NCBI GenBank assembly: GCA_963738405.1
Contig: CAVTWJ010000002.1
Coordinates: forward strand, 64,001-128,000
DNA from: a candidate division FCPU426 bacterium
Lineage (GTDB): Bacteria > Oederibacteriota > Muellerivitia > Muellerivitales > Muellerivitaceae
DNA length: 64,000 nucleotides
Direction of reading: 5' to 3'
Shown here: piece by piece, positions 19,401 through 64,000 of the stretch
Layout: every line of letters begins with the position of its first letter
Position numbering within the stretch: position 1 is the first letter of the stretch
Notes under the pieces: generated by a model
Databases searched by the model: none
Seen by the model: only the letters and a program-made list of their open reading frames with translations
What the model was told of the DNA's origin: nothing
Made by a program: the position numbers and the translations under genes

Positions 19401-20483
19401 TCATTTGGAAGCCAGTTGTTTCTTAAACCGGTCAATGAGGACGATGGGCGTAGGGTCCAGGCCCTTCAAGTAGGCCAGGTAAACGCTTGCGAAATCACCC
19501 AAAACCAGGCTGGTCATCATTTGGCAAAGGATACTCTTTCCCTGGGGCTCCACCTCCATGACCCCCGCTGTCCTGGATTTCAGAATTCCTTTAAGAATAT
19601 CGAACCTGCGTGCGATCTGATGATGGTCTCCCTTCGGAAGCCGCAACAACACCGCCGCCATGCCCCTGGTCAGCGGCTCGGGAAAGGAATAGCCCAAAAC
19701 CTCATTGTGGTTCATCTCGGGAACAACACCTTGTAGGCAAATTTGCTTGGCGTTCTCGTTGAATTGGCACTTCCAGCGGAGGCCTACCGGCTCCAAATGG
19801 TCCTGCCCGGCATAAACCACCGGAAGCTTCTTGTGAAGAAAGCGGGCCAGTTGTTTGGCGGGGTTTTGGGAAACCGGCTCATGAGGTCCATATCCAGCTG
19901 AGAGCCGGTTCATCCAATCAATGGTTTCGGCGAAGGCTTTATCCTGGGATTCCAAAAGCCCTATGGATTCCAAGGCGGTCATGAGGGTTACGAAGGAATA
20001 GCCCAGGGCTGACCGGGGCGGCATCCCCGAAGGCGGGGCCAAGTTTGGAAACTTGTGTTTGCGGGCCCTTCTTAAAAGCTCACCCCCGGTGGAAATAACC
20101 AAAAGAGGCAGTTTGCGCCGCAAAGCCTGATCAAAAACCGAGAGGGTTTCCTCCGTATTGCCCGAGTAGCTGGAACAAACCACCAGGGTGTTTTTGCCCG
20201 CCCATCCTGGCAGGTCGTAATGCCGATTAACGCTCACAGAGAAACGAGTGGATTTCCAGGTCAGGCCCTTCAAAAGGTCGCCGCCGATGGCCGACCCCCC
20301 CAACCCAGCGACCAGCACTTGACGGATACCGCCGGTTCTCACGCGAAGAGCAGGCGAAGCCTGGACCCTTCGGCGCGCGTCTAGAAACTGCCCCGGCAGG
20401 TTCAGCACCTTTCCCAGCATGTCGGAAGGATCCAACTTTTTCATTTTTTCAGGCTGATCCAATAGAAAAGGGGACAAGGGCAA
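19401..20483 (-). CDS. Bifunctional phosphoglucose/phosphomannose isomerase (SIS)
   Basis: GLGGSAIGGD, SYSGNTEET, PRSALGY, RWKCQFNENAK, PEMNHNE. Confidence 0.92.
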   Translation of the reverse strand: MPLSPFLLDQPEKMKKLDPSDMLGKVLNLPGQFLDARRRVQASPALRVRTGGIRQVLVAGLGGSAIGGDLLKGLTWKSTRFSVSVNRHYDLPGWAGKNTLVVCSSYSGNTEETLSVFDQALRRKLPLLVISTGGELLRRARKHKFPNLAPPSGMPPRSALGYSFVTLMTALESIGLLESQDKAFAETIDWMNRLSAGYGPHEPVSQNPAKQLARFLHKKLPVVYAGQDHLEPVGLRWKCQFNENAKQICLQGVVPEMNHNEVLGYSFPEPLTRGMAAVLLRLPKGDHHQIARRFDILKGILKSRTAGVMEVEPQGKSILCQMMTSLVLGDFASVYLAYLKGLDPTPIVLIDRFKKQLASK

Positions 20484-20562
20484 ACCTCCGAAGGGTTATC
20501 ACCAAGGTGTCAATTATTCACTTTCAAAGGGGCAAAATCAAAAAAGAAAAGGTAATAAAAGG

Positions 20563-22107
20563 CTAGCGGGCTGAGGATCCTTGAACCAGTTTCCCCGCCT
20601 GCCGAAAGGGTTCTTTCAACGCGGGGTAAAGCTTCCGAAACAACCCATAAAATTCCTGGTAGCGGTTTACAGAAGCCTTTCGGGGAGAGGTTCGGCTGGT
20701 CACCCGCACTAGGCTTGAACAGGCTATTTTCAGGTTGGGGTAAATCCCAACCCCTACCATTGCCAGCAGGGCCGCCCCATAGCCCGGGCCTTCCTTGCTG
20801 TTGACCGTCACCACTTCAGTTCCGTAGATATCCGCCTGAAGCTGACGCCAGAAGGGGTTCACAGCCCCGCCCCCGGTCGCCACAACCCGGCGGATGGGAA
20901 TTTTCAATTCCCGGAAAATTTCAAGCGAGTCCCTCATACCGAAGGTGATTCCCTCAAAGACCGAGCGGGTAAAATGATCCCGGCCATGGCGGGCACCGGC
21001 CCCCACAAAGGCAGCGCGTGCCATAGGGTCTTTATGAGGGGTTCGTTCACCCATTAAATAGGGCAGAAACAATAACCCTTCGCTTCCTTCGGGGGCCTTA
21101 GCGGCCTCCCGGCCCAAAAGATCGTAAGGGTCCATCCCCTTCTTCTTGGCGGCTTCCTTTTCCCATAGTCCCAGGCTATCCCGATACCAGCGCAGGGCAA
21201 AACCCGCCGAAAGCATGACCCCCATGAGGTACCACTTTTCGGGGACGCTGCCGCAAAAGGTATGGGCACGCATTTGGGGGTCCACCTGCACCTTTTCAGA
21301 GTGGGCCAAAACCACTCCGGATGTTCCCAGGCTGGCCATCACGTCGCCGGGCTGGATGATGCCGTTCCCCACCGCCCCGCAGGCGTTATCCGCCCCGCCC
21401 CCCACCACCGGAAGCCCGGCTGGCAGGTTAAGGGCCTTGGCCACGGCGCCGGTCAGGTTTCCGGATATATCCTGAGATTCGGTCACAGGCGGAAACCAGT
21501 TCAGGGGTACCCCTAATCGAGCCAATAGCGCCTTGGACCATTTTCGGTTTTTGACATCGAAACAAAGGGTCCCAGCCGCGTCGGAAACATCGGTCGCCAG
21601 TTCCCCGGTCCATTTGTATCGGATGTAGTCTTTGGGCAGGAGAACATGGGCGATGCGGGCGTAAATTTTAGGTTCGTGTTTTTTCACCCAAAGAATTTTG
21701 GGCAGGGTGAACCCTTCCAGAGCGGGGTTGGAAACCCATTTTTCAAGGTTGGCGATTCCTGCCTTGCGGGTGATTTCCTCACATTCGGCGTGAGTTCGGG
21801 TATCGCACCAAAGGAGGGCGGGCCGGAGAACCTTGCGGTCACGGTCCAAAAAAACAGAGGAATGCATTTGGCCTGAGAGCCCGATGGCCCGGATGTTTCG
21901 GACCGATAAATCCGACTTACGCACAGCGTCCGCCACGGCCTGGTTAGCGGCCTTAAGCCAGGTATCGGGGTGCTGTTCGGCCCAGCCCGGTTGAGGTGTC
22001 AGGAGGGGGTACTCCACCGTGACAGAAGAAAGAACGGTACCCTTTTCCGAGACCACAATGGCCTTGGTACCCGAGGTCCCGATGTCGCAGCCGATGACGG
22101 CCCTCAT
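20563..22107 (-). CDS. xylB: Xylulokinase
   Basis: DIGTSGTK, GLSGQMHS, LLPKDYIR, GGGADNA, FLPYLMGERTPH; adjacent to xylose isomerase. Confidence 0.93.
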   Translation of the reverse strand: MRAVIGCDIGTSGTKAIVVSEKGTVLSSVTVEYPLLTPQPGWAEQHPDTWLKAANQAVADAVRKSDLSVRNIRAIGLSGQMHSSVFLDRDRKVLRPALLWCDTRTHAECEEITRKAGIANLEKWVSNPALEGFTLPKILWVKKHEPKIYARIAHVLLPKDYIRYKWTGELATDVSDAAGTLCFDVKNRKWSKALLARLGVPLNWFPPVTESQDISGNLTGAVAKALNLPAGLPVVGGGADNACGAVGNGIIQPGDVMASLGTSGVVLAHSEKVQVDPQMRAHTFCGSVPEKWYLMGVMLSAGFALRWYRDSLGLWEKEAAKKKGMDPYDLLGREAAKAPEGSEGLLFLPYLMGERTPHKDPMARAAFVGAGARHGRDHFTRSVFEGITFGMRDSLEIFRELKIPIRRVVATGGGAVNPFWRQLQADIYGTEVVTVNSKEGPGYGAALLAMVGVGIYPNLKIACSSLVRVTSRTSPRKASVNRYQEFYGLFRKLYPALKEPFRQAGKLVQGSSAR

Positions 22108-22140
22108 GAAGCCTCCTTAAGAAAATCAGCTTTTCAATGT

Positions 22141-22283
22141 TGTCATCGCGAGGAGCCGCCCCAATCGGGGCGATTGGCGACGTGGCGATCTCAGTACGCC
22201 GTTCGCGTTGGTTTAGGCTTATTTAAACTGGGATTGCCTCGTCATAACCGCTCGCCTATCCGGCGAGCATTCCTCGCAATGAC
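22141..22283. repeat. Palindromic REP/MITE-like element, family GTCAT(C/T)GCGAGG...CCTCGCAATGAC, copy 1
   Basis: Terminal inverted repeats and internal hairpins; similar copy at 58536-58675. Confidence 0.8.
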
Positions 22284-22307: not shown

Positions 22308-23474
22308 CTAGTCCATACCCATCAGAATTTCCTGGAGGCGTTGATCCAGTTCCTCGTAGGGCAGGCGCTTTTTGGAAAGCAAATCGGGATTGAACTTTCC
22401 ATTCTTTAACTGATTCGCCCCCTCAGGCGTGAACCGTCTCATCACGTTTTCCCATTGGGGGTCCTTGCCGTGCAGGGCCTTGAGGATTTGCTGGATTTTC
22501 TTGTCGGCGTTGAACCGCCGTACCTTTTCCCAAAGCATCAGGTAGGTGCGCATGCTTCCATCCACGAAATCCCAAACGCCCTTCTCGTCCTCGCTACGGT
22601 AGGGATGCTCGTCGAAATTGCGTGTGCCTGCCCAGCCGTTGTCTTCCAGAAGTTTCACCACAAAGAAGGTTTCCTTTAAATCTTCAGAACCGAAACGCAG
22701 GTCCTGGTCGAAACGGCCCGGTTTCTGGGCCCCCAGGTCCACGTGGTAAAGCTTGCCTGCCTCCATCGCCTGAGCAAAGTCGTGGTAGGTGTTCAGGTTG
22801 GCCATGCGGGAATGCTCGATCTCGGGGTTTACCCCCACCCGATCCGGGTCGTCCAAAGTTTCAATAAAGGCCAGCACATGCCCTGCGGTGGCCAGGTAAA
22901 TGTCGCCACGCGGTTCGTTCGGCTTGGGTTCGATGGCGAACTTGAAGGAATATCCGTTATGCCTCGCGTAAGCGCAAAGGAAGTTCATGCACTCCCGGTA
23001 CCGCTTCAGGGCTTCCTCGGGGGTCTTGGCGGCGTCCACTTCGGCCCCTTCCCTGCCGCCCCAGAAGACATAAACGGTAGCGCCCAACTCGGCGCCTAGG
23101 TCCATGTTCTTCATCACCTTCTGCAGGGCAAATGCCCGAACCTTGGGGTCATGACTGGTGAAGGCCCCGTCCTTGAAAACCCGGTGAAAAAAAAGATTGG
23201 TGGTGGCCATGGCGCATTTGATGTCGTAATCGCGCATGATTTTTTTGGTGTCTTTAATGATTCGGTTTCGCAAGGTGAGGCTGGCCCCAAAGGGGATCAG
23301 GTCGTCGTCGTGATAATTGAAGCCCCAGACATTGTGCTTGGCCAGTTCCTTGATGTTGGTGAGGGGATCGAGTCGGGAACGGGTTTCCTCGCCAAAAGGA
23401 TCGCGGCCACGGTTGGCGGTGGTCCAAAGTCCGAATGAGAAACGGTGTTCCTTTTTGGGTTTATAGCTAGGCAT
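22308..23474 (-). CDS. xylA: Xylose isomerase (short class I type)
   Basis: EHRFSFGLWT..RGRDPFG, FWGGREG, IEPKPNEPRGD, FDQDLRFG; ATG at 23474 with GGAGG. Confidence 0.95.
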   Translation of the reverse strand: MPSYKPKKEHRFSFGLWTTANRGRDPFGEETRSRLDPLTNIKELAKHNVWGFNYHDDDLIPFGASLTLRNRIIKDTKKIMRDYDIKCAMATTNLFFHRVFKDGAFTSHDPKVRAFALQKVMKNMDLGAELGATVYVFWGGREGAEVDAAKTPEEALKRYRECMNFLCAYARHNGYSFKFAIEPKPNEPRGDIYLATAGHVLAFIETLDDPDRVGVNPEIEHSRMANLNTYHDFAQAMEAGKLYHVDLGAQKPGRFDQDLRFGSEDLKETFFVVKLLEDNGWAGTRNFDEHPYRSEDEKGVWDFVDGSMRTYLMLWEKVRRFNADKKIQQILKALHGKDPQWENVMRRFTPEGANQLKNGKFNPDLLSKKRLPYEELDQRLQEILMGMD

Positions 23475-23629
23475 GACGCCTCCGATATTTTGGTTGGTTT
23501 GACGAGAATCTTTTTCTTTCGACGGACGCACATTATACATTCTCCCTTTCGTCCGAATTCATGTATAAATAAACGAACAGTCGTGTTGAGACTGAAACAA
23601 CAATTGGAATTTCCAAAAAAGATTCAGAC

Positions 23630-24805
23630 ATGAACCCAACCCTCATCCAACAATCCCGCGCTGAATACCAAACCCTCTTCGGGGAAAAGCCCGCATTAGA
23701 CGCTTGGGGCCCGGGCCGAGTGAACCTGATCGGCGAACATACCGATTACAACGATGGTTATGTCCTCCCCATGGCCTTGAACCGGGGTATTTTTTGTACC
23801 GGCAAGGGCCGAAACGACGGCAAGGTCATTCTCTATTCCGCCGACTATCAAGACCGGGTGGAATTCGACGTGGAAAACCTTAAAAAAGACCCAACCCATT
23901 CCTGGGCTGATTATTTCAAAGGCGTTTTGGCGCAATACCTGAAGGCAGGTGGAAAATTCCAGGGCTGTCAGGCGCTTCTCAAGGGGGACCTGCCCCAAAG
24001 GGCGGGTTTAAGTTCTTCCGCCGCTTTGGAAGTAGCTTCGGCGGTTTTCATTGAAAAAATCAGCGGCCAGGTTTGGGGCGATCTGGAACTGGTCAAGGCC
24101 GCCCAGGCCGCGGAAAACCAATTCGTCGGCGTCAATTGCGGAATCATGGACCCCTACGCTTCTTACTTAGGGAGGGATTCCGACGCCCTTTTGATTGATT
24201 GCCAAAACCTGTCCTACCAATGGGTGCCAATCCATAAGGACGCTAAGATCGTCGTCTGCAATACGGGCGTCAAACGGGCCCTGGCCCAATCGGCTTACAA
24301 CCAAAGGCGACAGGAATGCGAGGAAGCGGTCCGGCTCCTCAAGCCCGCCCTGCCCCATGTCCACACCTTGCGGGACCTTTCCGTGGCGGACTTTGAGCGC
24401 CACCAAGAACTTCTGCCCGAAACCATCCTCAAACGCTGCCGCCACGTGGTTTCTGAAAACCAACGGGTCTTGGATATGGTTCGGGCCCTGGAGCAGGACG
24501 ACCTTATCACCGCTGGAACCTTAATGGCCCAATCCCACGAATCCCTTTGCGATGACTACGAGGTCAGTTGTAAGGAACTAGATTTACTGGCGAACCTGGC
24601 ACAAAAGAACGAGGCGGTTTACGGCGCCCGTATGACAGGGGCGGGTTTCGGCGGCTGTACTGTCAACCTAGTCCGGGAAGACGGGGTGGAAAGCTTCCGG
24701 CGGGAAGCCGCTGTGGAATATAAGGCGAAAACCGGCATTGACCTTGAAAGTTATGTCTTTACTGCCTCAGCCGGCGCCAAGTTTTATTCGGAACAAAAAT
24801 CATGA
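23630..24805 (+). CDS. galK: Galactokinase
   Basis: PGRVNLIGEHTDYNDG, AGLSSSAALE, CGIMD, GARMTGAGFGG. Confidence 0.95.
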   Translation: MNPTLIQQSRAEYQTLFGEKPALDAWGPGRVNLIGEHTDYNDGYVLPMALNRGIFCTGKGRNDGKVILYSADYQDRVEFDVENLKKDPTHSWADYFKGVLAQYLKAGGKFQGCQALLKGDLPQRAGLSSSAALEVASAVFIEKISGQVWGDLELVKAAQAAENQFVGVNCGIMDPYASYLGRDSDALLIDCQNLSYQWVPIHKDAKIVVCNTGVKRALAQSAYNQRRQECEEAVRLLKPALPHVHTLRDLSVADFERHQELLPETILKRCRHVVSENQRVLDMVRALEQDDLITAGTLMAQSHESLCDDYEVSCKELDLLANLAQKNEAVYGARMTGAGFGGCTVNLVREDGVESFRREAAVEYKAKTGIDLESYVFTASAGAKFYSEQKS

Positions 24806-25710
24806 AACCAGCCCTTGTGATTATGGCCGCTGGAATGGGAAGCCGGTTTGGAGGCCTCAAACAATTGGAAGGCGTGGACCCCGGAGGGTCTACCCTGCTG
24901 GATTACTCCATCTTCGATGCCCTGCGCGCCGGGTTTGGCAAGGTGGTTTTCATCGTGCGCCGGGAGATGGAAGCAGATTTTAAGGAACGTATCGGGAATA
25001 AGTGGGAACCCAAAGTCCTAGTCAGTTATGCCTTTCAAGAGCTATCGGACATCCCATCAGGCTTTCAGGTCCCACCAAACCGGCAAAAGCCCTGGGGCAC
25101 GGGCCATGCCATCTATTCGGCTCGAAATGCGGTAAAAGAGCCCTTCGCGGTCCTCAACGCCGACGATTATTACGGCCAACACACTTTCCAAGTCATGGCT
25201 GAATACCTGAAAACCATTCCCTCCCCCGAAAGTACTGCCTTCGCCATGGTGGCCTTTTGCCTGCGTCACACCCTATCCGAACACGGCCACGTATCCCGTG
25301 CCCTTTGCGAGGCGGACCCAGCCAGGAAGCTTCAAAAGGTCGTGGAACGGCTCAAGGTTTTCAAAAAAGGCGAAGGTGCCGAATACGAGGATGAAACGGG
25401 AGGCCGCCACCCCTTAAGCGGAAATGAACTGGTTTCCATGAATATCTGGGGCCTGACACCTTCGGTATTCCCGCAATTAGGCGGATTGTTTGAGGAGTTT
25501 TTGAAAGAAAAAGGCCAAGAAGAAAAGTCGGAGTTTCTGATACCTAAAGCCATCGATCAATTAATTACAAGAAAGCGGGCCGAAGTAAAAATTCTGCCCA
25601 CACCCGATTCATGGTTTGGGCTCACCTACCCCGAAGACCATGAGCAGGCTAAAGTTTCAATTAGTCAATTGGTTTCAAAAGGGGTCTATCCAGAAAATCT
25701 TTGGCGTTAA
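24802..25710 (+). CDS. Sugar-phosphate nucleotidyltransferase (NTP_transferase family)
   Basis: IMAAGMGSRFGGLKQ, KPWGTGHA, NADDYYG, WFGLTY; ATGA overlap with the galK stop. Confidence 0.85.
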   Translation: MKPALVIMAAGMGSRFGGLKQLEGVDPGGSTLLDYSIFDALRAGFGKVVFIVRREMEADFKERIGNKWEPKVLVSYAFQELSDIPSGFQVPPNRQKPWGTGHAIYSARNAVKEPFAVLNADDYYGQHTFQVMAEYLKTIPSPESTAFAMVAFCLRHTLSEHGHVSRALCEADPARKLQKVVERLKVFKKGEGAEYEDETGGRHPLSGNELVSMNIWGLTPSVFPQLGGLFEEFLKEKGQEEKSEFLIPKAIDQLITRKRAEVKILPTPDSWFGLTYPEDHEQAKVSISQLVSKGVYPENLWR

Positions 25711-25816: not shown

Positions 25817-26716
25817 TTATTTTTCTATCCTTTCAAATAAATAGAATCCACTTTCTGCGCACATTAGGATCATTTTTTGTCTCGTTTTATCTACAACGAT
25901 TTCGCGTAAATCATAGAATTTATTTCCCACCGGAACTGTTTCATATACAAAAACCGGATCACTAAAACCAAAGTCATAAGAAAACAACACTGTCCCTTTA
26001 CCGTGAGTTTTCCGGTCCCAGAATTCCGCGTCTCCCCTCTTTTCGATCTTTGGATGTGGGGAGATAGTACATTTAAAATTTCTACCAAACGAATTCAGTG
26101 TTATTACACTTGATCTAATAGAAGCAATTTTCCCGAGATTCGCCTTCGCTTCATCTTCCCCAATTGCGCCAATAAAGCGGATTTGATAATCAATCATTTT
26201 CCAATCGCCCTCTAAATCGGCATAAGGTTTTTCGGGAGGTTTTAAAGGAAAATAACTTATATAAGTCGAGTTGCAATTGTTGGCACTGCAATCATTGGAT
26301 AACACACTATGAATTTTCCCCACATCGAACCATATCACGCCATTACTTATCATATAACCCATATCACCCAAACAGATTTCATCTCTTTTTTGATTCAGGA
26401 TTTTTTTATTTACATCATCTGTAAAAATAACATCAATAAATTTTAATAACTGCTGTGGGTTGTTTGCCTTTTGTTCGAACTCATGGTTCACGAGACAGAC
26501 GGGATATTCAAACTGTAAAGAAAGCCATTTGTATTCTTTATTTTCGATAGCTTTTTTTATCCGGTCGAAATATGCCCTAGTAGCAATATCTTCTGTTGTT
26601 AGTCCTGTTTGCTTTTCTTTTATTTCATCGGATTTAGCTATAAGTTCATTACTTAAACAGTGACGGGGGCAGAAAAGAAAGACAGCAAATAAGACTAATG
26701 TGAAATAAATTTTCAT
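25817..26716 (-). CDS. AT-rich secreted hypothetical protein
   Basis: Long ORF with signal peptide (MKIYFTLVLFAVFLFC); visibly lower GC than neighbours. Confidence 0.65.
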   Translation of the reverse strand: MKIYFTLVLFAVFLFCPRHCLSNELIAKSDEIKEKQTGLTTEDIATRAYFDRIKKAIENKEYKWLSLQFEYPVCLVNHEFEQKANNPQQLLKFIDVIFTDDVNKKILNQKRDEICLGDMGYMISNGVIWFDVGKIHSVLSNDCSANNCNSTYISYFPLKPPEKPYADLEGDWKMIDYQIRFIGAIGEDEAKANLGKIASIRSSVITLNSFGRNFKCTISPHPKIEKRGDAEFWDRKTHGKGTVLFSYDFGFSDPVFVYETVPVGNKFYDLREIVVDKTRQKMILMCAESGFYLFERIEK

Positions 26717-26778
26717 AACGTTTCCTTCATCACGCATTCTATCTTTGGTAGTCCGCGTGCGGGCCCAAACTCATTGTT

Positions 26779-27768
26779 CTAAGCCGAATCCCGAACAATC
26801 AAATGGGTCTTGATTTGCAGGGTGGAACGAACCTTCTCCTCACCTGTAACCAACCTCATCAATTTGTGAACGGCTTGTTTCCCTAATTCAAAGGGGTCGT
26901 ACCCCACGGTGGTAAGGGTAGGCGTCACATAGGAAGCCATTTCAATATCATCAAAACCCACTAACGCGAACAGGCCTTCTTTTTTACGGTTCTGCAGGGT
27001 CTTCATTACCCCGATGGCCATGGCGTCATTCGCCGCGAAGATGGCGGTAGGCGGGTTGGCCATTTCCAGGAATTTCCCTGCCGCCTCGATGCCGGAGGGA
27101 ATGGTGTAATTCCCCTTTTGGATCAAGCTCTCGTCGATAGGTATGCCAGCCTCCTTCAACGCCAACCGATAGCCCTGCTCGCGGTCGGAAGAATCGCTCA
27201 TATCTTCCCTGCCCGTGATGAAACCGATCCTCTTATGTCCCTTTTGAATCAAGTGTTCGGTGGCTTGTTTTCCGCCGTTGAGATTATCGAGGGCAATGGT
27301 GGGCATAAGGTACTCGAACCGCTTTTCACCGGCGACCACCATGGGAAACTTGCGCTGGTTCAAACTGCGGATGAGCCCTTCCATCTGGGGCGAGGGCAGG
27401 AAAAATAAAAGGCCGTCCACCACCGGCGGCTCGGTGAGGGTATGGATAATCTCCCTTTCCTCCAGGGTTCCTTCCGGCAGGGTCGCGAGGGTCAAAAGCT
27501 TTCCATGTCGCCGGGCTTCTTCTTCCATGCCCGAAATCGAAACGGCCGCGAAGAGATTGAGGGAAGGGGTGACCACGCCCAGAAACCCGGTCTTATGGTT
27601 GGCCGCCAAGCCCCTGGCGAAGCGGTTGGGCCGGTACTGCATCTTTTCCATCATGGCTTTGACTTTTTGTTCGGTCTCAAACTTCACCGCCAGCCCGTTT
27701 AAAACCCTTGAAACAGTCGCCTTGGAAACACCCGTGTTATCGGCGATCTGTTGAATCGTCACACCCAT
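26779..27768 (-). CDS. LacI family transcriptional regulator
   Basis: TIQQIADNTGVSKATVSRVLN HTH, YRPNRFARGL hinge, AANDAMAIG, GFDD, PTLTTV. Confidence 0.95.
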   Translation of the reverse strand: MGVTIQQIADNTGVSKATVSRVLNGLAVKFETEQKVKAMMEKMQYRPNRFARGLAANHKTGFLGVVTPSLNLFAAVSISGMEEEARRHGKLLTLATLPEGTLEEREIIHTLTEPPVVDGLLFFLPSPQMEGLIRSLNQRKFPMVVAGEKRFEYLMPTIALDNLNGGKQATEHLIQKGHKRIGFITGREDMSDSSDREQGYRLALKEAGIPIDESLIQKGNYTIPSGIEAAGKFLEMANPPTAIFAANDAMAIGVMKTLQNRKKEGLFALVGFDDIEMASYVTPTLTTVGYDPFELGKQAVHKLMRLVTGEEKVRSTLQIKTHLIVRDSA

Positions 27769-27811: not shown

Positions 27812-27827
27812 TTTGTAACCGGTTTAA
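27812..27827. promoter_or_regulatory. Candidate LacI-family operator TTTGTAACCGGTTTAA (site 1)
   Basis: Near-palindrome with central CG ~45 bp upstream of the lacI start; identical 16-mer at 39776. Confidence 0.7.
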
Positions 27828-28612: not shown

Positions 28613-28660
28613 AACTCCCCTCCCCAATCCCGTCCCACCAATAATACCGCGCTGTACCGA

Positions 28661-52356: not shown

Positions 52357-52399
52357 GAACCTGAATTAAGGGTGTTGTTTACCAGATTTGGCGCTTTCG

Positions 52400-55620: not shown

Positions 55621-55627
55621 AAAACAT

Positions 55628-55727
55628 TTCACCACCAAGACACAAAGACACCAAGAACACCGAGAAGCATAGATTTCGTAGCTTCAAATCTATTGTTTCC
55701 CTTGGTGACTTGGTGCCTTCGTGGTAA
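55628..55727. repeat. CACCAAG-family palindromic element
   Basis: Forward arm 55628-55655, reverse arm 55701-55727. Confidence 0.8.
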
Positions 55728-55776
55728 TTATCGGTTTTGTTGTATGTTCCGAGAGATTCGCGCAATCCGTTGTTCC

Positions 55777-57219
55777 TTACCGGGTTTTCCACCGGTTGGC
55801 ATCATAACGGATGCGGGCTTGAGGAATACAGGCCAGCTTGGCAACAACTTGAGCGGCTCCCGCAGGGTTTATGCCTGATTCGGGGGGCGCGAAGAGGCGG
55901 ATGGGAAAGGGTTTGGCGGTTCCCCATTCGACCGCGGCTTGGGTGACATCCACCCATTCCACACCCGGCTTCTTATAGAACCATTTCTTCCCGGCTCCGA
56001 TGAGCAGATTGGCCTTCTTATCTAACAACAATTCCAGGAATACCGGCTTCTTCTTTAAAGAAACCTTCCAACCCAAACCGTCCGAGTCATCTGAGGCCCG
56101 CCATTCAGTCTTAAGGGCTCCCCTCAAGCGGCTCCAGTTTTCTTTAGGTTGGAAATAGGGGTTTAGGATCAGCTCCCGGTATTCCGAAAGGTAGGACGTG
56201 GGCAGACCATTGCGGGAATTATTGGGGTCTTCCCTTTCCAATCCCAGCCTTCCCCGGTCACGGAATTGGTAATAGGTGATGCCCCTTAGAAAATCCGGTT
56301 TGTGTTTCAACACCAGCCCAAAAAACTGCCGGACCAATTGGCTTTGGAGTTCCTCACCACCCACGTTTCCGTCCGCGTTGAATTCGCCGATTTCCAAACC
56401 CTTATCTTCACCCGTGAGCTGGCAAAACCTGCGGTGGGTGGCTTGGAGCTGGCTCCAGATCGTTGAAACCGTCTGAATGGTATAGGTCTTTTTCAAACCG
56501 CCCGGTTCGCACGGCTTTCGCGGCCAGGCATAGTGAAGACTAACGTACTTGTCCGTGGACCAAATATCCGCCGCGCCCAGGATCGGAAACAACTTCTTTT
56601 CGAACCTTAACCCGCCCTTTTTAGAATTGACCCAATGACCCCAACAGGACATCAATTGGACGTTGGGAGCCTCATTTTTAAGGACACTTGCGAAGCGGAC
56701 AAAAAAGGCGGCGACCTGGGCGTAGCTGTACCGGCGGTTAAAGGCGAACCAGAACCCATCGCACTCGTGGTTCAAGCGAAGGCGCAATCGGCCAAAGGGC
56801 TTTAATTGACGGGCGATGACACGGATATGGTCGTCAGGAACCGCGCAGTCCATGGTCAGGGTCAGGGTGACATCCTGTCCGTGGCGGCGGATCTCCCGCA
56901 TTTGTTCGAACACCGGCCCGGCGGTATTGCCTTTGGGGCCCCCGCTAAAGGGAAAGTAATCGTCGTATGGATAGGGCCAGTCCCGGTCGCCTTTGGGTTT
57001 GTGGGCCACTGATGCCCGAAGGGGCCATCCCTTGTCGAAGGGATAGTAGCAATACATGAGGTTGATAGAGCGGTGGGGGCGGCCCAAAGAAGCCAGGATA
57101 TAGTCCTGGTCCACATATTCGCCCCGCTCGCTCCCATCCCCCAGGTCCAGGGAACAGGAAGCGGGTGAAAGGATGACCCGGTAGGGTTGGGTGAGGGTTT
57201 GGAGGCCGATTACTTTCAT
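55777..57219 (-). CDS. Cytoplasmic hypothetical protein with GH26-like (clan GH-A) motifs
   Basis: LRLRLNHECDGFWF resembles the GH26 RxxHExxGxWF acid/base motif; EIGEFN is a candidate nucleophile; no signal peptide. Confidence 0.55.
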   Translation of the reverse strand: MKVIGLQTLTQPYRVILSPASCSLDLGDGSERGEYVDQDYILASLGRPHRSINLMYCYYPFDKGWPLRASVAHKPKGDRDWPYPYDDYFPFSGGPKGNTAGPVFEQMREIRRHGQDVTLTLTMDCAVPDDHIRVIARQLKPFGRLRLRLNHECDGFWFAFNRRYSYAQVAAFFVRFASVLKNEAPNVQLMSCWGHWVNSKKGGLRFEKKLFPILGAADIWSTDKYVSLHYAWPRKPCEPGGLKKTYTIQTVSTIWSQLQATHRRFCQLTGEDKGLEIGEFNADGNVGGEELQSQLVRQFFGLVLKHKPDFLRGITYYQFRDRGRLGLEREDPNNSRNGLPTSYLSEYRELILNPYFQPKENWSRLRGALKTEWRASDDSDGLGWKVSLKKKPVFLELLLDKKANLLIGAGKKWFYKKPGVEWVDVTQAAVEWGTAKPFPIRLFAPPESGINPAGAAQVVAKLACIPQARIRYDANRWKTR

Positions 57220-57356
57220 TTTTCATCCTTAAAGAAATCAATTCAGCCACAGATACATGGGATTCATAGGATAGGCAAAAAGCCTTTAAAGATTCTAAAA
57301 AATCACAACTACAAACACACAAATTCCAAACCTTAAAACCTCTAACAAAAACCATT

Positions 57357-57448
57357 TTCACCACCAAGACACCAAGTCACCAAGAAATGATTTCGATTTA
57401 AACCCTAAAATTTTGCCGTTCTTGGCGTCTTGGTGCCTTGGTGGTGAA
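57357..57448. repeat. CACCAAG-family palindromic element
   Basis: Forward arm 57357-57384, reverse arm 57421-57448. Confidence 0.85.
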
Positions 57449-57467
57449 TAATTAGATTTTCCTCTTC

Positions 57468-58511
57468 TTATTTCCCCGGCTGGGGCCACTGATCTTTCGG
57501 TACGTCTTTATAAACGTCTTCCAACTTTTGAAATCCATCGGCGATCACCGTGCTGACCATGTTGTCCTTGGTGACAGGGATGGGATCGAGGAAATAACTG
57601 GGTACGTCCTTTTTGCCGTTGTTGGTCGTGGTGGGAGCCGGGGGCAAAGCCTGACCCTTGGCCAGCTTGACGGCGATATCCGCCGCCTCAGCGGCCAAAA
57701 ATTTCACAGGTTTGTAAACGGTCATGGTTTGGGTGCCCGCCACGATACGCTGACAGCCGGCCAGTTCGGCGTCCTGCCCCGAAACGACCACCTTGCCCGC
57801 CAAGCCTTGCTCCGTCAAGGCCTGGATGTCCCCGCCCGCCGTGCCGTCGTAAGAATCCACCACCGCGTCCACCTTGTTGTTGTTCATGGTCAATATGTTT
57901 TCCATCTTCTTCAAAGCGTTGACCGCCAGCCAATCATCCGCCCATTGATCGCCCACGATCTTGATGTCGCCTTTCTTCACCAGCGGGTCCAGCACGATCC
58001 GCTGGCCCTTTCGAAAAAGAATCGCGTTGTAGTCGGTGGGCGCACCGCCCATGAGCACGTAATTGCCCTTGGGGCGCAAGTTGACGAGGGAGGAGGCCTG
58101 TAGTTCCCCGACCTTGATGTTATCGAAGGACACATAGGCGTCCACGTCCGAATCGAGAACGAGCCGGTCGTAGGAAAGTACGGGAACGCCCATCTTGTGG
58201 GCTTCATCCACAATCGTGGCGCAGCTTTTGGCGTTGTGGGGGATCACCACCAGGCACTTAATGCCCTGGGTGAGGAGATTTTCGGCCTGCGAATTCTGAA
58301 GGGTGTCGTTGGAATCGGCGCATTGAACCAGCACCTCGATTCCCTGGGCGTTGCACTTGGCCGTGAGGATGTCCCGGTCCTGGGCCCAGCGAGCAGCTCG
58401 GAGGGTATCCATGGAAAGGCCGATCTTGGTGTCGTAATGGGGCTTGGAAGCGCACCCCGACAGAAATCCCGCGGTCGCGAGCAAGGCCAAAATAGCTTTC
58501 GAAGATTTCAT
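57468..58511 (-). CDS. Second XylF-like sugar-binding lipoprotein (orphan paralog)
   Basis: Lipobox LSGC; high visible similarity to 45181..46188. Confidence 0.88.
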   Translation of the reverse strand: MKSSKAILALLATAGFLSGCASKPHYDTKIGLSMDTLRAARWAQDRDILTAKCNAQGIEVLVQCADSNDTLQNSQAENLLTQGIKCLVVIPHNAKSCATIVDEAHKMGVPVLSYDRLVLDSDVDAYVSFDNIKVGELQASSLVNLRPKGNYVLMGGAPTDYNAILFRKGQRIVLDPLVKKGDIKIVGDQWADDWLAVNALKKMENILTMNNNKVDAVVDSYDGTAGGDIQALTEQGLAGKVVVSGQDAELAGCQRIVAGTQTMTVYKPVKFLAAEAADIAVKLAKGQALPPAPTTTNNGKKDVPSYFLDPIPVTKDNMVSTVIADGFQKLEDVYKDVPKDQWPQPGK

Positions 58512-58535
58512 TTTTTCCTCTTTAAATGATTTGTC

Positions 58536-58675
58536 TGTCATCGCGAGGAGCCGCCCCAATCGGGGTGGTTGGCGACGCGGCGATCCCAGTTCACATTTCT
58601 CTTTTTAAGACATATTCAAACTGAGATTGCCACGTCATAAACATCCCCTATTCGGGGATATTCCTCGCAATGACA
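58536..58675. repeat. Palindromic REP/MITE-like element GTCATCGCGAGG...CCTCGCAATGAC, copy 2
   Basis: First ~30 nt identical to the copy at 22141. Confidence 0.8.
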
Positions 58676-58676: not shown

Positions 58677-60929
58677 CTACTTCACTTCAATCGGGCCCAG
58701 CGGGCCATCATATAAACCAGCGCCCCCCGTCATGTTATAGACACGGATGGCAATCACGTTGTCTTCCCCAAAACGAATGGCCGAAGCCGGAACCTCGTAA
58801 TGGCGTTCCTGGTTCCAGGCGGTTTGGGCGTTGGGCGGCAGGCCCCCCATATGACCGATTTCTTCACCGTTCCAATAGGTGGCGTCCGCATCGTCAATCT
58901 TGCCAAAGGGGATCAGGAGGGAATGCCCTTTCCATTCCGCCGGAATATAGAGGTGCTTCCGGTACCAGCCGTAGCAATTTTCGCATTTATAGCCTTGGTC
59001 TTCCCACTTCGCCGGTAACTTTACCTTGTCCCAGGCCTGGTCGTCAAAACCCGGATTTTGCCAGGCGAGATCATCCCCTTTGGAAAAAAGCCATTCACCC
59101 GTGAGGTCAATGGAGGGCAAGGCCACTTGCCATTGGAAAGAAACGTTGGTGGTCGGCCCTTGAGGAAGATACATAAAACTCGCCGTATTAATACCAGCCT
59201 TGGGATTCTCGTAGGAAAAGTTGAAAGATTGGAGGGATTTCCCTCCGACCGTCACTGGTTTTGAATCCACCTTTTCACCGTCAACCGCAAACTCAACCTC
59301 TTTAACCATTTCGTTTGGGTCGTAGTTTTGGATAAACCCTCCGACGGTTAAACTGTTCCCCTGGACTTGGGGTTTGACACCGCCCATGAGAAACCCGCTT
59401 AATTCCAACTTATAAACTATGGGATCACTTCCCGCTTTGGCGGGCGGAGAAAGAACCAAGGCCTGGCTTTGGCGGTCCCACTTCATTTCTTCCGCAGAGC
59501 CAAGCAAAGATACCTTTTTAATTTCCAGGTCAGGACAGGCAATAAGGCCCAAATGAGCGAGGGTTAAAGGTTTGGTAGGCGGCACCATGCAAAAGACGTA
59601 AAGAACATTTCCCTTTCGGGTATATCGCACATCCCCTTCCTGGTACTTCACGTCCATCTCGCTAAACTTTCCTCCTTCAACGTTTGTGGGACCCTCACCA
59701 AAGGTCACCCAGGGACGAGTTCCATAGATGGCCTCGCCGTTCACTTTCAACCAATCGCCAATTTGAAGAAGAATCTTTTCTTGTTCTTCCGGAATGGTGC
59801 CGTCAGGCTTGGGCCCGATATCCAAAAGCAGGTTCCCATTACGGCTCACCGTGTCGATGAGGGTGCGGATCAAGTATCCCGCGTCTTTGAGCGAGTCGTC
59901 GTTTAGGTAGGCCCATGACCGCCAGCTCACCGAGGTGTCTGTTTGCCAGGGCACCGGATTAATACCGGGAAGTTTTCCCTTTTCCACATCCTGAACCGAG
60001 GCGCCCGGCACGAAGGCTTTGTCCTTGGTGTTCAGGACCACACCTTCCTTCCATTGCGCCGCACGGTCGTAATAGTAGGCGGCGAATTTACGAACATAGG
60101 GATCGAATACAGGCTTCTCGCCGATCCACCAGTCGAAATACACCAATTGAGGGTGATATTTGTCCACCAACTCGGTAGAACGGGCCAGCCAATTGTTCAG
60201 GTACTCGTCATTGGGCGCCGTATCATCCGGCTGGGCAGGGCCGTAAAAATCGGCGTACTTGGGGTTTTGGACGTCTGAATCAAATTTCATGCCCCCATTC
60301 ATGAACCACCAATGTTCCGCCCGGTGGGAGGAAAGCCCGAAAACCAACCCTTGGGATCGCACCGCCTTGGCCAATTCACCGATCACGTCCCTCTTGGGGC
60401 CCATCTTTTTCGCCGTCCATTTCGAAAAACCGGAGTCATACATGGCGAACCCATCATGGTGCTCGGCCACCGGCACCACATACTTCGCCCCCGCTTCTTT
60501 AAATACTTTCGCCCAGTGGGCTGGATCGAATTTCTCAGCCTTGAAGAGGGGGATAAAATCCTTATAGCCGAACTTGGATTGGTCGCCATAAGTGGCCAAG
60601 TGATGCTTGAAGGCATCATCGCCCTGCTGGTACATGTTTCGGGAATACCACTCATTGGCGTAAGCGGGCACCGAATAGAGACCCCAATGGATGAAGATGC
60701 CGAATTTGGCGTCCCGGTACCAACCGGGCGCTTGGTAACCCTTGAGGGATTCCCATTGATCCTTGAAAGCATCGGCCCGGATAACCGAATCAACCTTCTT
60801 CACTTGGCTTTTCACTTTTTTCTGGGTATCGGATGATTCCCACTTGAGATCCTCGGAAAAGGCCTTTAGGGGAATGGCCATGCAAACCACCGCAAGGATA
60901 AAAAAGTTTTTCGCTCGCTGAAACTTCAT
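58677..60929 (-). CDS. Alpha-L-fucosidase, GH29, with C-terminal jelly-roll domain
   Basis: WYRDAKFGIFIHWGLYSVP, VAEHHDGF, YFDWW, SRNGNLLLDIGP, WLKVNGEAIYGTRPW; signal peptide from ATG 60929. Confidence 0.92.
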   Translation of the reverse strand: MKFQRAKNFFILAVVCMAIPLKAFSEDLKWESSDTQKKVKSQVKKVDSVIRADAFKDQWESLKGYQAPGWYRDAKFGIFIHWGLYSVPAYANEWYSRNMYQQGDDAFKHHLATYGDQSKFGYKDFIPLFKAEKFDPAHWAKVFKEAGAKYVVPVAEHHDGFAMYDSGFSKWTAKKMGPKRDVIGELAKAVRSQGLVFGLSSHRAEHWWFMNGGMKFDSDVQNPKYADFYGPAQPDDTAPNDEYLNNWLARSTELVDKYHPQLVYFDWWIGEKPVFDPYVRKFAAYYYDRAAQWKEGVVLNTKDKAFVPGASVQDVEKGKLPGINPVPWQTDTSVSWRSWAYLNDDSLKDAGYLIRTLIDTVSRNGNLLLDIGPKPDGTIPEEQEKILLQIGDWLKVNGEAIYGTRPWVTFGEGPTNVEGGKFSEMDVKYQEGDVRYTRKGNVLYVFCMVPPTKPLTLAHLGLIACPDLEIKKVSLLGSAEEMKWDRQSQALVLSPPAKAGSDPIVYKLELSGFLMGGVKPQVQGNSLTVGGFIQNYDPNEMVKEVEFAVDGEKVDSKPVTVGGKSLQSFNFSYENPKAGINTASFMYLPQGPTTNVSFQWQVALPSIDLTGEWLFSKGDDLAWQNPGFDDQAWDKVKLPAKWEDQGYKCENCYGWYRKHLYIPAEWKGHSLLIPFGKIDDADATYWNGEEIGHMGGLPPNAQTAWNQERHYEVPASAIRFGEDNVIAIRVYNMTGGAGLYDGPLGPIEVK

Positions 60930-61335
60930 GGATGCCCCTTGAGAAATGGATTCTCCCCGCCGACCCCTGCTCGAAGAACACCATTTAAACGCAAACAAAT
61001 CATTCCATGCTCCTTTTTTTCAAGGAACCCATTCCATCCAAAAAGAATCCAAACAAATCAGTTAAACGAGGAAGAAAATGAAACAGACCGAAACCTTTTC
61101 AATCCTTTTTCAGTGCCAACCAGAATTTTCACGGGGCACCTCCGCCCTTTTCATCAAAGCCCTTTTCTCTTGGTTAAAGAGGGGCTTTACTTCATTCCAC
61201 GGTATCTTCTTTGGTGGTATGATTAATTCGTTTTGGCGTACTTGAAGCAAATCTCAACCCCGCCCAATGAGTAAATCGATCAGGGCCTAACGGGGCTGTT
61301 GAAATCCGGCGCAAGACCATCCGCGGAGGAAAATA

Positions 61336-63744
61336 ATGGGACGTTTGAAGAAATTGATTTATGTGGCTGAAGCCAGCATCCTGATCGCCGCCGTTATTGT
61401 CGGCTGTACCAGAAACCTCCCTCCCCTAGCGCCAACTCAAATATTGCCCGAGCCCGGTGTTTGGAACATTGTCTTCGGCCCTCCCTCCAGCACCTCTACG
61501 AATGTCACGATTACCCAATCCGGAAACAACGTAACCGTGACCGGCAACATCGGCGGAACCCCCATTACCCTGACCGGAACGGTCTCGGGCAATAACATCA
61601 ACTTAACCAACGGCAGCAGCATGACCATTACCGGAACCCTCTCAGGCACCCAAACGACCGGAACCTCTATTTCGGGCAATTACACCTCCACCGGTATTCC
61701 CACAATCTCCAGCGGAACCGCGACTGGAACTTTCGTCGGCCCCATCACCAACACACCCACCACCAGCCCGACCCCGTCCGTGACGGCGACAACCACCCGA
61801 ACCCCCACAGGAACTTCAACCGCCACCCCAAGCGGGCCTACCAACACCCCAACTTCATCTTCAACACCCACCAGCACGGGAACCCCCACTTTGACTGCCA
61901 CCGTTACCAACTCCCCGACGGACACCCCCACTTTAACTATTACGGATACTCCAACTGTCACGAACAGCCCCACCGTGACGCCAAGTCCCACGGTCACCGA
62001 TTCACCCACCGTGACTTCTTCGCCGACTGACACTTTGTCCGTTACGTCAACGGGCACGGACACCCCGACCCAGCAAAACACTTCTACTTCGACATCTACC
62101 GGCACTCCCACTTTGACCAGCACTCCAGGTGTCACCTTGACGCCCTACGCCAACGTCACCCCCTGCGCCTCGAGCCCTTCGACTTTCCAAACGAATTACG
62201 ACTTCACCAACGGGATTCAATGCTGGACAGCGAAGGTGGATACCGGGACCAATTACATCACCGGATTCGGTACGACGAGCCTGGTCCAATACACAGGGCA
62301 AAGCGTACTGGCGGTATCCGTCAGCAACCCCACCGGGAGCCCGGTGACGGTCTCCATTGATTTCATAGAGGCCACCTCAGCGGCCGAAGTCCTGACCGGC
62401 GGGAGCGTCACGGCCTACGCCAGGATCGATTCGAACTTGACGGTCGCCGGCCCCCAAGCCCAGATCTATAGCATCGGCGGCGCCCCCGGATACGGTTATG
62501 ACGACTCCAACAACAATTGGCCGTCGGTTACTTCCTCAGGCTGGGCCCAAATCATTGAAAACGGCGTGGGGAACGCGAATTCCCAACAACTCGGGGTGCA
62601 GGTGTATAACGTCGCGGTCCCCGCCAACTCCTCGGGCAACATTTACCTTGCCGACGTGTCCCTAAATATTCCACCGGCTTCGACTCCCACCATGACCCCC
62701 AGTCCGACCGTCACAAGTACCCCGGGCGGGCCTACAGCCACCGCCACAAGCACCACGGTGAGTTCCGGTTGCACCCTTCTTTATGACTGCCAAGCCTTGG
62801 TGGAAAACAACTACAGTTGGGCGGCCGGGGCCAACGCCGCCATCAGTACGTCCTCGACATGGCATACCTACGGAACCCAGTCCATTGATTGCAATGTGAC
62901 GACGGGCAACACCTGGTGCAAGATCGCCAACATCAACAGCTTCTTCCCGATTTCAACCACCGGCATGACTCAAATCATCGCGGATGTGGATGTGGATGCC
63001 TCCATGGTTACCGGCAACGGCGGGTATGACCAATTGGTCTTGCAAACCAATGCAGGAAACACGTTAGCCACGGCTGCAATCGGACTTGCGGCAGGTGCAC
63101 AATCAGTCACTTTCACGGTCTCAGGAAGTGTTGCAGCGTCCATCAACGATTATGAGTTCATCTATCAATCCGGAGGAACCCCGACTGGAAATATCTACCT
63201 AGATAATATCCAGGTGGTCTTTACTGGCGCCTGTCCCACGCCGGTGCCTGATACTTATATCCAAGGTTGGAACTTCGAGGGTAATTCCCTCACGGATACC
63301 GTCGGCACTTGGGTCACGATCGGCGGCGCGGACCTCGGAATGAATTTGCTAGTCACACAACCGGGCGACTTAAGTAGTTATTGCGCCGATGTTACGGCCA
63401 ACTTTACGGCCGCCAACCAAACAGCTGGGATGATTATGGTCCCAGGCACCGCCATTGACGGGTCCTCTTTTACCGGAATCCGGGCTAGCTTTTGGATCGA
63501 TTCATCTTGCGCCCCCGGCCAGTACCCCAGCGGGGAGATTCAATTGGGAGATGGAACCAATTACCCCTCGAGTCCTTGGACCAATCTGACTCTGGGAGGA
63601 TGGACGACCATTACTTATCCAGTGTCAAGCTGGGGAACATTTACCACATCGAACATCAATATGGTTAAGGTGTTTGTGAACCTAGGCGGAGCCTCCGCGT
63701 TTGGTTCCGGCCATGTGAAATTCGATAACATCGAATTTTATTGA
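61336..63744 (+). CDS. Large surface lipoprotein with long Thr/Pro/Ser stalk and three CBM-like beta-sandwich modules
   Basis: SD GGAGG; lipobox IVGC; long TPT repeat tract; modules ending GNIYLADV, GNIYLDNI, GHVKFDNIEFY. Confidence 0.8.
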   Translation: MGRLKKLIYVAEASILIAAVIVGCTRNLPPLAPTQILPEPGVWNIVFGPPSSTSTNVTITQSGNNVTVTGNIGGTPITLTGTVSGNNINLTNGSSMTITGTLSGTQTTGTSISGNYTSTGIPTISSGTATGTFVGPITNTPTTSPTPSVTATTTRTPTGTSTATPSGPTNTPTSSSTPTSTGTPTLTATVTNSPTDTPTLTITDTPTVTNSPTVTPSPTVTDSPTVTSSPTDTLSVTSTGTDTPTQQNTSTSTSTGTPTLTSTPGVTLTPYANVTPCASSPSTFQTNYDFTNGIQCWTAKVDTGTNYITGFGTTSLVQYTGQSVLAVSVSNPTGSPVTVSIDFIEATSAAEVLTGGSVTAYARIDSNLTVAGPQAQIYSIGGAPGYGYDDSNNNWPSVTSSGWAQIIENGVGNANSQQLGVQVYNVAVPANSSGNIYLADVSLNIPPASTPTMTPSPTVTSTPGGPTATATSTTVSSGCTLLYDCQALVENNYSWAAGANAAISTSSTWHTYGTQSIDCNVTTGNTWCKIANINSFFPISTTGMTQIIADVDVDASMVTGNGGYDQLVLQTNAGNTLATAAIGLAAGAQSVTFTVSGSVAASINDYEFIYQSGGTPTGNIYLDNIQVVFTGACPTPVPDTYIQGWNFEGNSLTDTVGTWVTIGGADLGMNLLVTQPGDLSSYCADVTANFTAANQTAGMIMVPGTAIDGSSFTGIRASFWIDSSCAPGQYPSGEIQLGDGTNYPSSPWTNLTLGGWTTITYPVSSWGTFTTSNINMVKVFVNLGGASAFGSGHVKFDNIEFY

Positions 63745-63771
63745 GCGAATTTTAAATCTAGATTTCTTTTC

Positions 63772-63803
63772 AAGCGGCTCCGTCCAAAGCGGGGCCGCTT
63801 TTT
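63772..63803 (+). terminator. Intrinsic terminator
   Basis: AAGCGGCTCCG-TCCAAAG-CGGGGCCGCTT-TTT. Confidence 0.8.
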
Positions 63804-63858
63804 GTTTAAGGCCTGTTCTTTTTAAGACGTTGATTTTTCCTATATCTTTGGAGTCCCG

Positions 63859-64000
63859 ATGATTACCTTTAACCCTTCCTCTAAAACCTTTCGCCTAGAC
63901 GGCCAAAACTCCACCACCCTTTTGGCGGTCAACCCCCTGAGGGGGCTGGGCCACCTCCATTGGGGTTCTCCCCTTTCAAACGATGAAGAAGCAAAACTGG
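63859..64000 (+). CDS. N-terminus of a probable GH36 alpha-galactosidase (runs off the window)
   Basis: Manual translation MITFNPSSKTFRLDGQNSTTLLAVNPLRGLGHLHWGSPL resembles the GH36 N-terminal pattern; GGAG upstream; not in the ORF track. Confidence 0.6.
   Translation, partial: MITFNPSSKTFRLDGQNSTTLLAVNPLRGLGHLHWGSPLSNDEEAKL

Follow-up and report, generated by a model that had tools for sequence, protein, structure and literature searches.

How might a diderm bacterium acquire xyloglucan if not through a TonB-dependent transporter? This question is raised by a locus in a 64,000-nucleotide stretch (hereafter the window, whose positions are used throughout) of contig CAVTWJ010000002.1 from a candidate division FCPU426 bacterium. 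To our knowledge, entry in the described xyloglucan systems is by TonB-dependent transporters or, in monoderms, by ATP-binding cassette (ABC) importers alone. The initial annotation of the window proposed a ~45-kb locus matched to acetylated fucogalacto-xyloglucan, with an architecture that differs from these systems. By using Pfam/NCBIfam profile matches for the window proteins, the source genome (G000; 3.18 Mb, 23 contigs, 90.7% complete), and 24 other genomes of the family (25 with G000; labels such as G001 and G002 denote the relatives), the locus can be read as a family-conserved cluster for xyloglucan uptake and breakdown in which three predicted OmpM-like pores take the place of a TonB-dependent transporter. 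The probability of this reading is put at roughly two in three.

All of the genes originally listed are present where they had been placed. Genes of the endoglucanase, GH31, beta-galactosidase, and fucosidase families are co-located, as in xyloglucan utilization loci. The GH44 endoglucanase (37044-39686, plus strand) has a lipoprotein signal (Cys24) and a weak CBM30-like N-terminal domain; its nearest structure is the cellulase 3II1 (251 bits), and it also matches Cel44C xyloglucanase structures. GH31 (49981-52356, plus strand) is of the YicI/5F7C type, the two nearest structures, and has neither PA14 nor a signal peptide. GH2 (41917-44922, minus strand) scores 1096 bits against the GalA beta-galactosidase model (cut-off 900), and GH29 is encoded at 58677-60998 (minus strand). 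The CE20-like acetylesterase (SASA; 52708-54708, plus strand) has a split SGNH domain with the Ser-His-Asp triad S116, D539, and H541, as in CE20, and matches XacXaeA (7KMM) over two stretches (289 bits); the X448 insert of that enzyme was not found in it, the insert region matching CIA30 and not the 7KMM insert. Catalytic motifs are present in GH44 (E525/E725), GH31 (D475/D539), GH2 (E477/E552), GH29 (D289), and the esterase (S116/D539/H541), the role of each residue being what we take it to be from family motifs. As first annotated, GH2, GH29, and the esterase appear to be exported and GH31 does not: judged from N-terminal hydropathy, the basis of all export calls here, only the first three carry hydrophobic signals, so that an all-cytoplasmic trimming of side chains was not found. 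The proposed lipoprotein nature of GH44 holds in part, since the Cys is seen in five of the 11 orthologues listed (G000, three congeners, and G018), whereas the other six resemble cleaved signal peptides. An assignment of GH44 to EpsB of exopolysaccharide synthesis was rejected (234 bits against a cut-off of 1250; no glycosyltransferase in 19401-64000).

The candidate entry route is an operon on the minus strand that starts with a 276-residue lipoprotein (35959-36789; no Pfam match, a candidate glycan-binding lid), continues with barrel A (33233-35926), barrel B (30984-33227), and barrel C (28661-31000), and ends with another lipoprotein (27935-28627), which is related to a module of an 802-residue lipoprotein at the far end of the locus. 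Barrel B has a signal peptide and a terminal Phe. Its model (101 sequences, pLDDT 86.8) contains SLH-like helices at residues 48-120, a long helix at 125-151 that would form a coiled coil, and then 22 long strands (a hand count from DSSP) with no plug, which is the OmpM/SlpA-type order of a coiled coil followed by a C-terminal beta-barrel. Residues 39-123 match the SLH domain of OmpM1 (8BZ2; Z 9.6, root-mean-square deviation (rmsd) 2.2, 78 aligned). No Pfam SLH match was obtained for barrel B, and its Atlas neighbors carry SLH; the nearest Atlas cluster is mostly Ca. Goldiibacteriota, equated with FCPU426 in PMC7031533, and this group is taken to be the likely affiliation of G000. Matches of the barrel portion to numerous porins (Z 12-14) have high rmsd and are informative for the fold class only. 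Barrel C is a full-length paralogue of B (678 columns, probability 100), and barrel A, which also ends in Phe, shares a stalk with B, the part for which homology between the two is shown. Thus, barrel B is predicted to be an OmpM-like protein with an SLH domain, a coiled coil, and a plug-less 22-strand barrel. SusC and usher identities were rejected, since the top Foldseek matches, ushers and TonB receptors, reach only TM ~0.3 at rmsd >9 and the N-terminus is a helical stalk. There is no TonB-dependent receptor in the window, and among 594 open reading frames (ORFs) of the related loci there is one, outside the cluster. The different architecture that had been proposed is therefore borne out: no SusC/D or TonB-dependent transporter, and not ABC import alone.

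Much of this gene set is shared within the family. Among the 24 relatives, orthologues were found of GH44 in 16 (54-76% identity), GH31 in 18, GH29 in 16, and a GH26-like gene in 14, and the genome sets of GH44, GH29, the GH26-like gene, and a duplicate clade of barrel B are all nested within the GH31 set. In 10/16 relatives no more than 30 kb separates the GH44 orthologue from barrel B, and in 9/16 the same is true for GH31, the misses being mostly on short contigs; clustering by chance is excluded because the synteny is kept in relatives. In the stretches fetched from the 16 GH44-bearing relatives, many of them shortened by contig ends, barrel A occurs in 12; the oligosaccharide-type solute-binding lipoprotein (SBP; SBP_bac_1, 40593-41909, minus strand), GH2, GH31, and the opening lipoprotein in 11 each; GH29 in 10; and a second XylF (57468-58559, minus strand) in eight. 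On the other hand, xylFGH was found in two (XylF, 45169-46188; XylG-like ATPase, 46357-47868; XylH-like permease, 48595-49683; all on the plus strand), xylA in two (22308-23540, minus strand, TIGR02631 above cut-off), the GH36 alpha-galactosidase in two, and the bifunctional phosphoglucose/phosphomannose isomerase (PGI/PMI; 19401-20483, minus strand) in none, and close esterase orthologues adjoin GH31 in three relatives. These genes are rare in the relatives' loci, so that the 45 kb divides into a conserved core and a rim that varies. The core is GH44, the three barrels with their flanking lipoproteins, the SBP, GH2 GalA, GH31, GH29, and XylF; this part of the proposed locus stands, whereas PGI/PMI, xylAB (xylulokinase XylB, 20563-22107, minus strand, TIGR01312 above cut-off), xylFGH, GH36, and the esterase form a loose rim. 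GH36 does begin at the window end, as noted at the outset (63859-64000, plus strand; rim gene), and is intact to 66051, with no signal peptide.

What substrate does the core serve? Xyloglucan, the target originally proposed, is probably the best substrate for the locus enzymes, as suggested by the family assignments, the intact motifs, the PA14-GH31 genes of the relatives, and the GH74 genes of G000. A PA14-bearing GH31 is found in 10/24 relatives and stands beside locus genes in G004, G005, G008, G020, and G021; PA14 is a mark of the xyloglucan-oligosaccharide xylosidases BoGH31 and CjXyl31A (PMC12144081), and this gene is the strongest pointer to xyloglucan. GH44 enzymes are able to cleave this polymer (PMC4780118). 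GH44 is present in the locus as a backbone enzyme, as proposed; it is not necessarily the main cutter, since two intact GH74s on contig C14 and three further GH44s are encoded elsewhere in G000.

A broader function is conceivable, in which the locus is a primary-wall island that serves several hemicelluloses (xyloglucan together with galactoglucomannan or the side chains of xylan) through a single common entry cassette, with a mannan arm made up of GH36, the esterase, PGI/PMI, and the GH26-like enzyme. GH36, a GH26-like fold, and PGI/PMI do lie within the window, and GH43, GH35, GH39-like, GH9, GH30, and GH62 genes occur near GH44 copies in relatives. However, neither GH26 nor GH130 was found in G000 at its 90.7% completeness, GH36 is in only two relative loci and PGI/PMI in none, and the genes that stay together are precisely those of the xyloglucan set, which makes the island unlikely.

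Regulatory signals also bear on this alternative. A palindrome, a LacI-type operator candidate, lies upstream of the LacI-family regulator gene (lacI, 26779-27768, minus strand) at 27814-27827, and a second at 39778-39791 precedes the gene for an exported protein with a lipoprotein-like N-terminal Cys (39811-40518, plus strand), which follows GH44 and is weakly related to the 276-residue lipoprotein. The pattern has nine matches in the genome, seven of them intergenic, a count that is not an independent test because these two sites were used to derive the pattern. The palindrome precedes lacI in G001, G003, and G018, the post-GH44 lipoprotein gene in G001, G002, and G003, and barrel A directly in G014 and G021. 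It also stands before a PL4 - GH28/GH53 - GH74 run on C14 and before a GH16 gene, which favors the island. This distribution hints at a primary-wall regulon, and would not imply that the whole locus is one regulon.

The GH26-like gene (55777-57219, minus strand) had been passed over in the original gene list. It encodes a 480-residue enzyme with no signal peptide and no Pfam match, PF02156 (GH26) included, and sequence searches against the PDB gave no match either; 1918 homologues were found. R148, N150, H151, E152, and E279 are invariant in 119 aligned homologues, and the model (pLDDT 94.5) is a TIM barrel in which two conserved glutamates, E152 and E279, lie at the ends of strands, as in a clan GH-A enzyme. 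The best fold match is the GH26 lichenase CtLic26A (2BV9; Z 22.6, rmsd 3.1, 261 aligned; next match Z 20.2). The two share 15% identity, and unlike CtLic26A the 480-residue enzyme has an extra C-terminal beta domain, in addition to its missing GH26 match and signal peptide. Within the family the gene adjoins GH31, GH29, or galK (five fetched loci). Most of 75 metagenome loci with homologues, five of them close relatives, lack these neighbors, and a GH31-like neighbor occurs in three loci of one cluster; of 93 large neighbors picked, 87 were scanned and eight were assigned to GH26, GH31, GH94, GH43 (twice), GH53, GH3, and GH5. Inference of a substrate from these neighborhoods was abandoned, since no consistent one emerged. 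The enzyme is a candidate cytoplasmic backbone trimmer, and it opens up a large and as yet unclassified family of glycosidases, with a guess at the substrate that can be tested.

Is the barrel trio truly part of xyloglucan use? Sorted by context, the 44 barrel B copies comprise 25 at a housekeeping site and 19 elsewhere; some short contigs show one flank or part of this site. In most family genomes, even those without the enzymes, one cassette copy is flanked by an rlmD fusion and lepA. In a quick tree rooted on barrel C (SH-aLRT support; one frameshifted copy, from G001, left out), 18 of the 19 copies away from the rlmD-lepA site group in a single clade (SH-aLRT 100), which is found in G000 and 15/24 relatives, every one GH31-bearing; the members from G010 and G013 have no recognized locus enzyme on their short contigs. 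The locus cassette is a duplicate of the housekeeping-site copy. The RlmD fusion is kept upstream of the housekeeping-site cassette across the family; in G000 it is a 1395-residue ORF (C9, 266520-270707) that joins an RlmD-type RNA methyltransferase to ~900 residues with no Pfam match, as scanned to residue 1160.

These data bear on a second alternative, in which the enzymes serve xyloglucan and the trio is an OmpM-kind envelope tether or general porin, the oligomers entering by a route encoded elsewhere. It draws on the rlmD-lepA copy in nearly all family genomes regardless of enzymes, on the role of OmpM1 as a tether and general porin (PMC10628300), and on the TonB receptors encoded elsewhere in G000. 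Nevertheless, the duplicate clade is confined to GH31-bearing genomes and lies beside GH44 in 10/16, 22 strands are predicted against 16 in OmpM1, in G014 and G021 barrel A is immediately preceded by the operator candidate, and distant homologues occur in Cytophagaceae and Chitinivibrionales, so that this alternative is regarded as rather improbable. Like the next one, it concerns a single step and overlaps with the other readings.

The GH29 enzyme has its best structural match in the exo-alpha-L-galactosidase BpGH29 (7LJJ, 458 bits, E 6e-136); Fusarium FgFCO1 is the third distinct enzyme among its structure matches (258 bits), and its C-terminal module matches residues 248-361 of XacXaeA, within the X448 insert (E 3e-18). 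GH95 was found in 0/25 family genomes, and GH29 is thus the sole fucosidase candidate seen. BpGH29 and FgFCO1 belong to one network cluster of mixed function, which includes alpha-1,2-fucosidases active on xyloglucan (PMC11189522). That GH29 is an alpha-L-galactosidase acting on an L-galactose-bearing glycan (a complex xylan or an unusual xyloglucan), with the fucogalacto label wrong, is suggested by this best match and by the lack of fucose isomerase in the family and of FucU in G000; it is nonetheless very doubtful, since the cluster of BpGH29 is not isofunctional and GH29 is the only enzyme seen that could remove fucose.

Several observations weigh against the xyloglucan cluster with its own pores. 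The family genomes are kin and hence not independent samples. GH44 enzymes often perform better on cellulose than on xyloglucan (PMC4780118); GH31 reaches 502 bits against the YicI alpha-xylosidase model, below the cut-off of 606 (MalA model, 247), and its best structure carries an alpha-glucosidase label; and the best match of GH29 is, as described, an L-galactosidase. Fucose isomerase was found in 0/25 family genomes. Six relatives have no GH44, GH31, GH29, or 480-residue gene, four of them 63-85% complete and two near complete. In 80 metagenome loci, homologues of the 480-residue enzyme mostly stand alone, without locus-type neighbors, so that its tie to xyloglucan is local and its substrate a guess. 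Barrel B occurs in 24/24 family genomes, including those without locus enzymes, and the cassette therefore also has a general role. Seven TonB receptor matches above cut-off lie elsewhere in G000, and in G000 the palindrome was found upstream of neither GH44 nor GH31 nor the barrel operon.

If xyloglucan is nevertheless the substrate and the trio its entry route, five steps may be envisaged. First, the secreted GH74s and the cell-anchored GH44 would cut the glucan backbone. Second, the flanking lipoproteins may bind the oligomers, whose diffusion would be by way of barrels A, B (of predicted fold), and C, which may together form a single wall-tethered heterotrimer. Third, periplasmic GH29, GH2, and esterase would strip fucose, galactose, and acetate, as their families suggest. 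Fourth, the SBP may pass xylogluco-oligomers to a permease encoded elsewhere, and XylF/G/H would import free xylose. Fifth, cytoplasmic GH31 would take off xylose and the GH26-like enzyme would likely cut the bared glucan, the weakest step, while XylA/XylB and GalK would route the sugars into metabolism and fucose would probably be left behind.

The rest of the genome supplies some of these parts. No permease for the SBP was found in the locus, and all eight BPD_transp_1 matches of G000 lie on other contigs; a permease pair stands beside another SBP_bac_1 gene on contig C5. The absence of GH3 and of fucose catabolic genes from the window, as first reported, is borne out by the profile calls. 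Extended to the whole genome, the search returned a NagZ-type enzyme as the only GH3 and neither GH1 nor GH94 (90.7% complete). A two-domain GH3 is present in 23/24 relatives, and the missing gene is therefore probably an assembly gap, a true loss of beta-glucosidase being less likely. For fucose, FucU was not found in G000 either; the sugar is probably cleaved off without being metabolized, or else another route deals with it. GalT was not found in G000; the galactokinase gene galK (23630-24805, plus strand) is overlapped by a nucleotidyltransferase gene (24802-25710, plus strand) whose product is a candidate GalT stand-in. This overlap (23630-25710) may indicate a UTP-dependent route for galactose-1-phosphate, and G024 has both the pair and galT-galK.

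Other features of G000 concern the same enzyme classes. On C22 (2192-4198), a malectin domain accompanies a GH116 catalytic region whose N-terminal part is apparently missing; this is another possible beta-glucosidase. Large secreted enzymes are encoded on C14 (180311-216615), including the two GH74s, PL4, a GH28-GH53 fusion, and an ECF-type sigma module. On C13 (2823-4508), a secreted GH44 is preceded by what is left of a GH74 domain, its final ~100 residues, which reflects a truncated gene or a misassembly.

The locus and its surroundings show further features. The Thr/Pro-rich 802-residue lipoprotein (61336-63744, plus strand) has C-terminal modules without a Pfam family, and an exported protein with no assigned function (54796-55638, minus strand) is present in five relative loci. 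The 276-residue lipoprotein is related to the CIA30-like insert of the esterase (E 3e-5, 10-domain comparison). Two orphan genes (25817-26737 and 47964-48506) lack paralogues in the genome and matched nothing in related loci; the second splits xylG from xylH, where G001 has unrelated inserts at the same position. Between GH31 and the esterase (52390-52650), a tandem array of short CACCGGAAA-containing repeats yields a spurious 119-residue ORF, and a REP-like inverted-repeat element with ACCAAG/CTTGGT arms occupies intergenic sites at 46189-46356, 49684-49980, 55639-55776, and 57220-57467. At the locus border (13542-19061) lie DUF4301, tRNA genes, an AAA_22 ATPase, and an 849-residue TPR protein, and the ATPase-TPR pair flanks the locus in G008 as well; an Rfam scan found three tRNAs, none inside the locus. 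Further out (2222-4273), a type II/IV secretion ATPase has a ParA/MinD-like N-terminal fusion. Among the relatives, loci add GH43, GH35, and in one case GH3, and a frameshift splits the GH31 orthologue in two assemblies (G001:C24, 37310-39677; G020:C14, 194041-196342). Two relatives (G014:C7 and G024:C32) have a second locus, near-identical between them, in which GH44 and barrel genes occur with GH35, another GH29, GH2, AraC, and LacI; in G014 it adjoins transposase-like genes.

Compared with known systems, the locus works like a xyloglucan utilization locus, yet it fits neither the TonB type nor the ABC-only type. No description of this gene combination, or of an OmpM-like cassette in a xyloglucan locus, was found in a literature search that covered few subscription papers and no supplements, and searches on OmpM and on FCPU426/Goldbacteria (PMC10628300, PMC7031533, and PMC9765126 among the papers) brought up no such cassette-bearing locus. 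Precedents exist singly: GH29 in Thermotoga, CE20 in Xanthomonas, and a xyloglucan-active GH44 in Ruminiclostridium, outside the cluster. The side-chain enzymes belong to ordinary families, and the placement of GH44 within a utilization locus is also notable: loci of the TonB-dependent type have GH5, GH9, or GH74 in the locus, whereas here GH44 is in the locus and the GH74s are on C14.

Thermotoga maritima TM_0305-0310 likewise unites an endo-enzyme, GH29, a signal-less GH31, and a beta-galactosidase (PMC12144081). However, it uses GH74 and GH42 instead of GH44 and GH2, its GH29 and galactosidase are intracellular whereas those here appear exported by hydropathy, and it has in the locus a fucose isomerase not found in the present family; the word porin is absent from that paper. 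Ruminiclostridium cellulolyticum shares an ABC SBP, a cytoplasmic GH31, and a xyloglucan-active GH44 (Cel44O), but it is a monoderm in which Cel44O belongs to the cellulosome and lies outside the uptake cluster, debranching is all cytoplasmic, and the cluster includes GH3 (PMC4780118). In an ABC-type cluster of this kind the SBP would be expected together with its permeases; here only the SBP is present. The Xanthomonas citri xyloglucan utilization locus resembles the present one in its CE20 acetylesterase, GH31, neighboring xylose genes, and periplasmic debranching, and differs in its two TonB-dependent transporters, GH74, GH35, and GH95, and in an esterase insert that is X448 there and CIA30-like here (PMC8245568). 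Bacteroides loci share GH2 and GH31, with PA14-GH31 and GH43 added in the relatives studied here, but they use GH5 and GH95 instead of GH44 and GH29, and no SusC/D-type pair is present here (PMC12144081).

For the barrels, the closest likeness is to OmpM1 of Veillonella parvula and to SlpA (PMC10628300; PDB 8BZ2, 8BYM), which have an SLH-like domain, a coiled coil, and a plug-less C-terminal barrel. Here, by contrast, there are three divergent genes in a fixed order, with flanking lipoproteins and a linkage to glycan enzymes, and 22 strands are predicted as against 16 in OmpM1 and 30 in SlpA (PMC10628300). A profile search with barrel B returned 419 proteins at E <=0.001, including ~570-residue Cytophagaceae proteins (E 2e-19) and 660-700-residue proteins, one from Chitinivibrionales; 20 were looked up, two with a taxon, and none was named C. 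hutchinsonii. The Cytophagaceae proteins match the profile from about position 200 on, not the stalk, and are possible counterparts of CHU_1276/1277. Cytophaga hutchinsonii chu_1276-1280 also combines non-SusC/D outer-membrane proteins, a CBM-like surface protein, and an endoglucanase, with cellulose as the substrate (PMC12016534). It is tentatively conceivable, and still somewhat doubtful, that the duplicated OmpM-like cassette has turned into a TonB-independent importer specific for glycans, in which a wall-tethered heterotrimeric pore with exchangeable lipoprotein lids does the job of SusC/D, and that it works with a new clan GH-A family, cytoplasmic, whose members cut the backbone once xylose has been removed. 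If true, this would be a third polysaccharide-locus design, shared distantly with cellulolytic Cytophagaceae and Fibrobacterota. Since one copy at the housekeeping site and one linked to the locus coexist in G000, specificity is testable side by side with a cheap defined substrate. Set beside the TonB-dependent and ABC-only systems, the locus thus points to a plug-less, wall-tethered pore set as an entry route in a little-studied diderm lineage.

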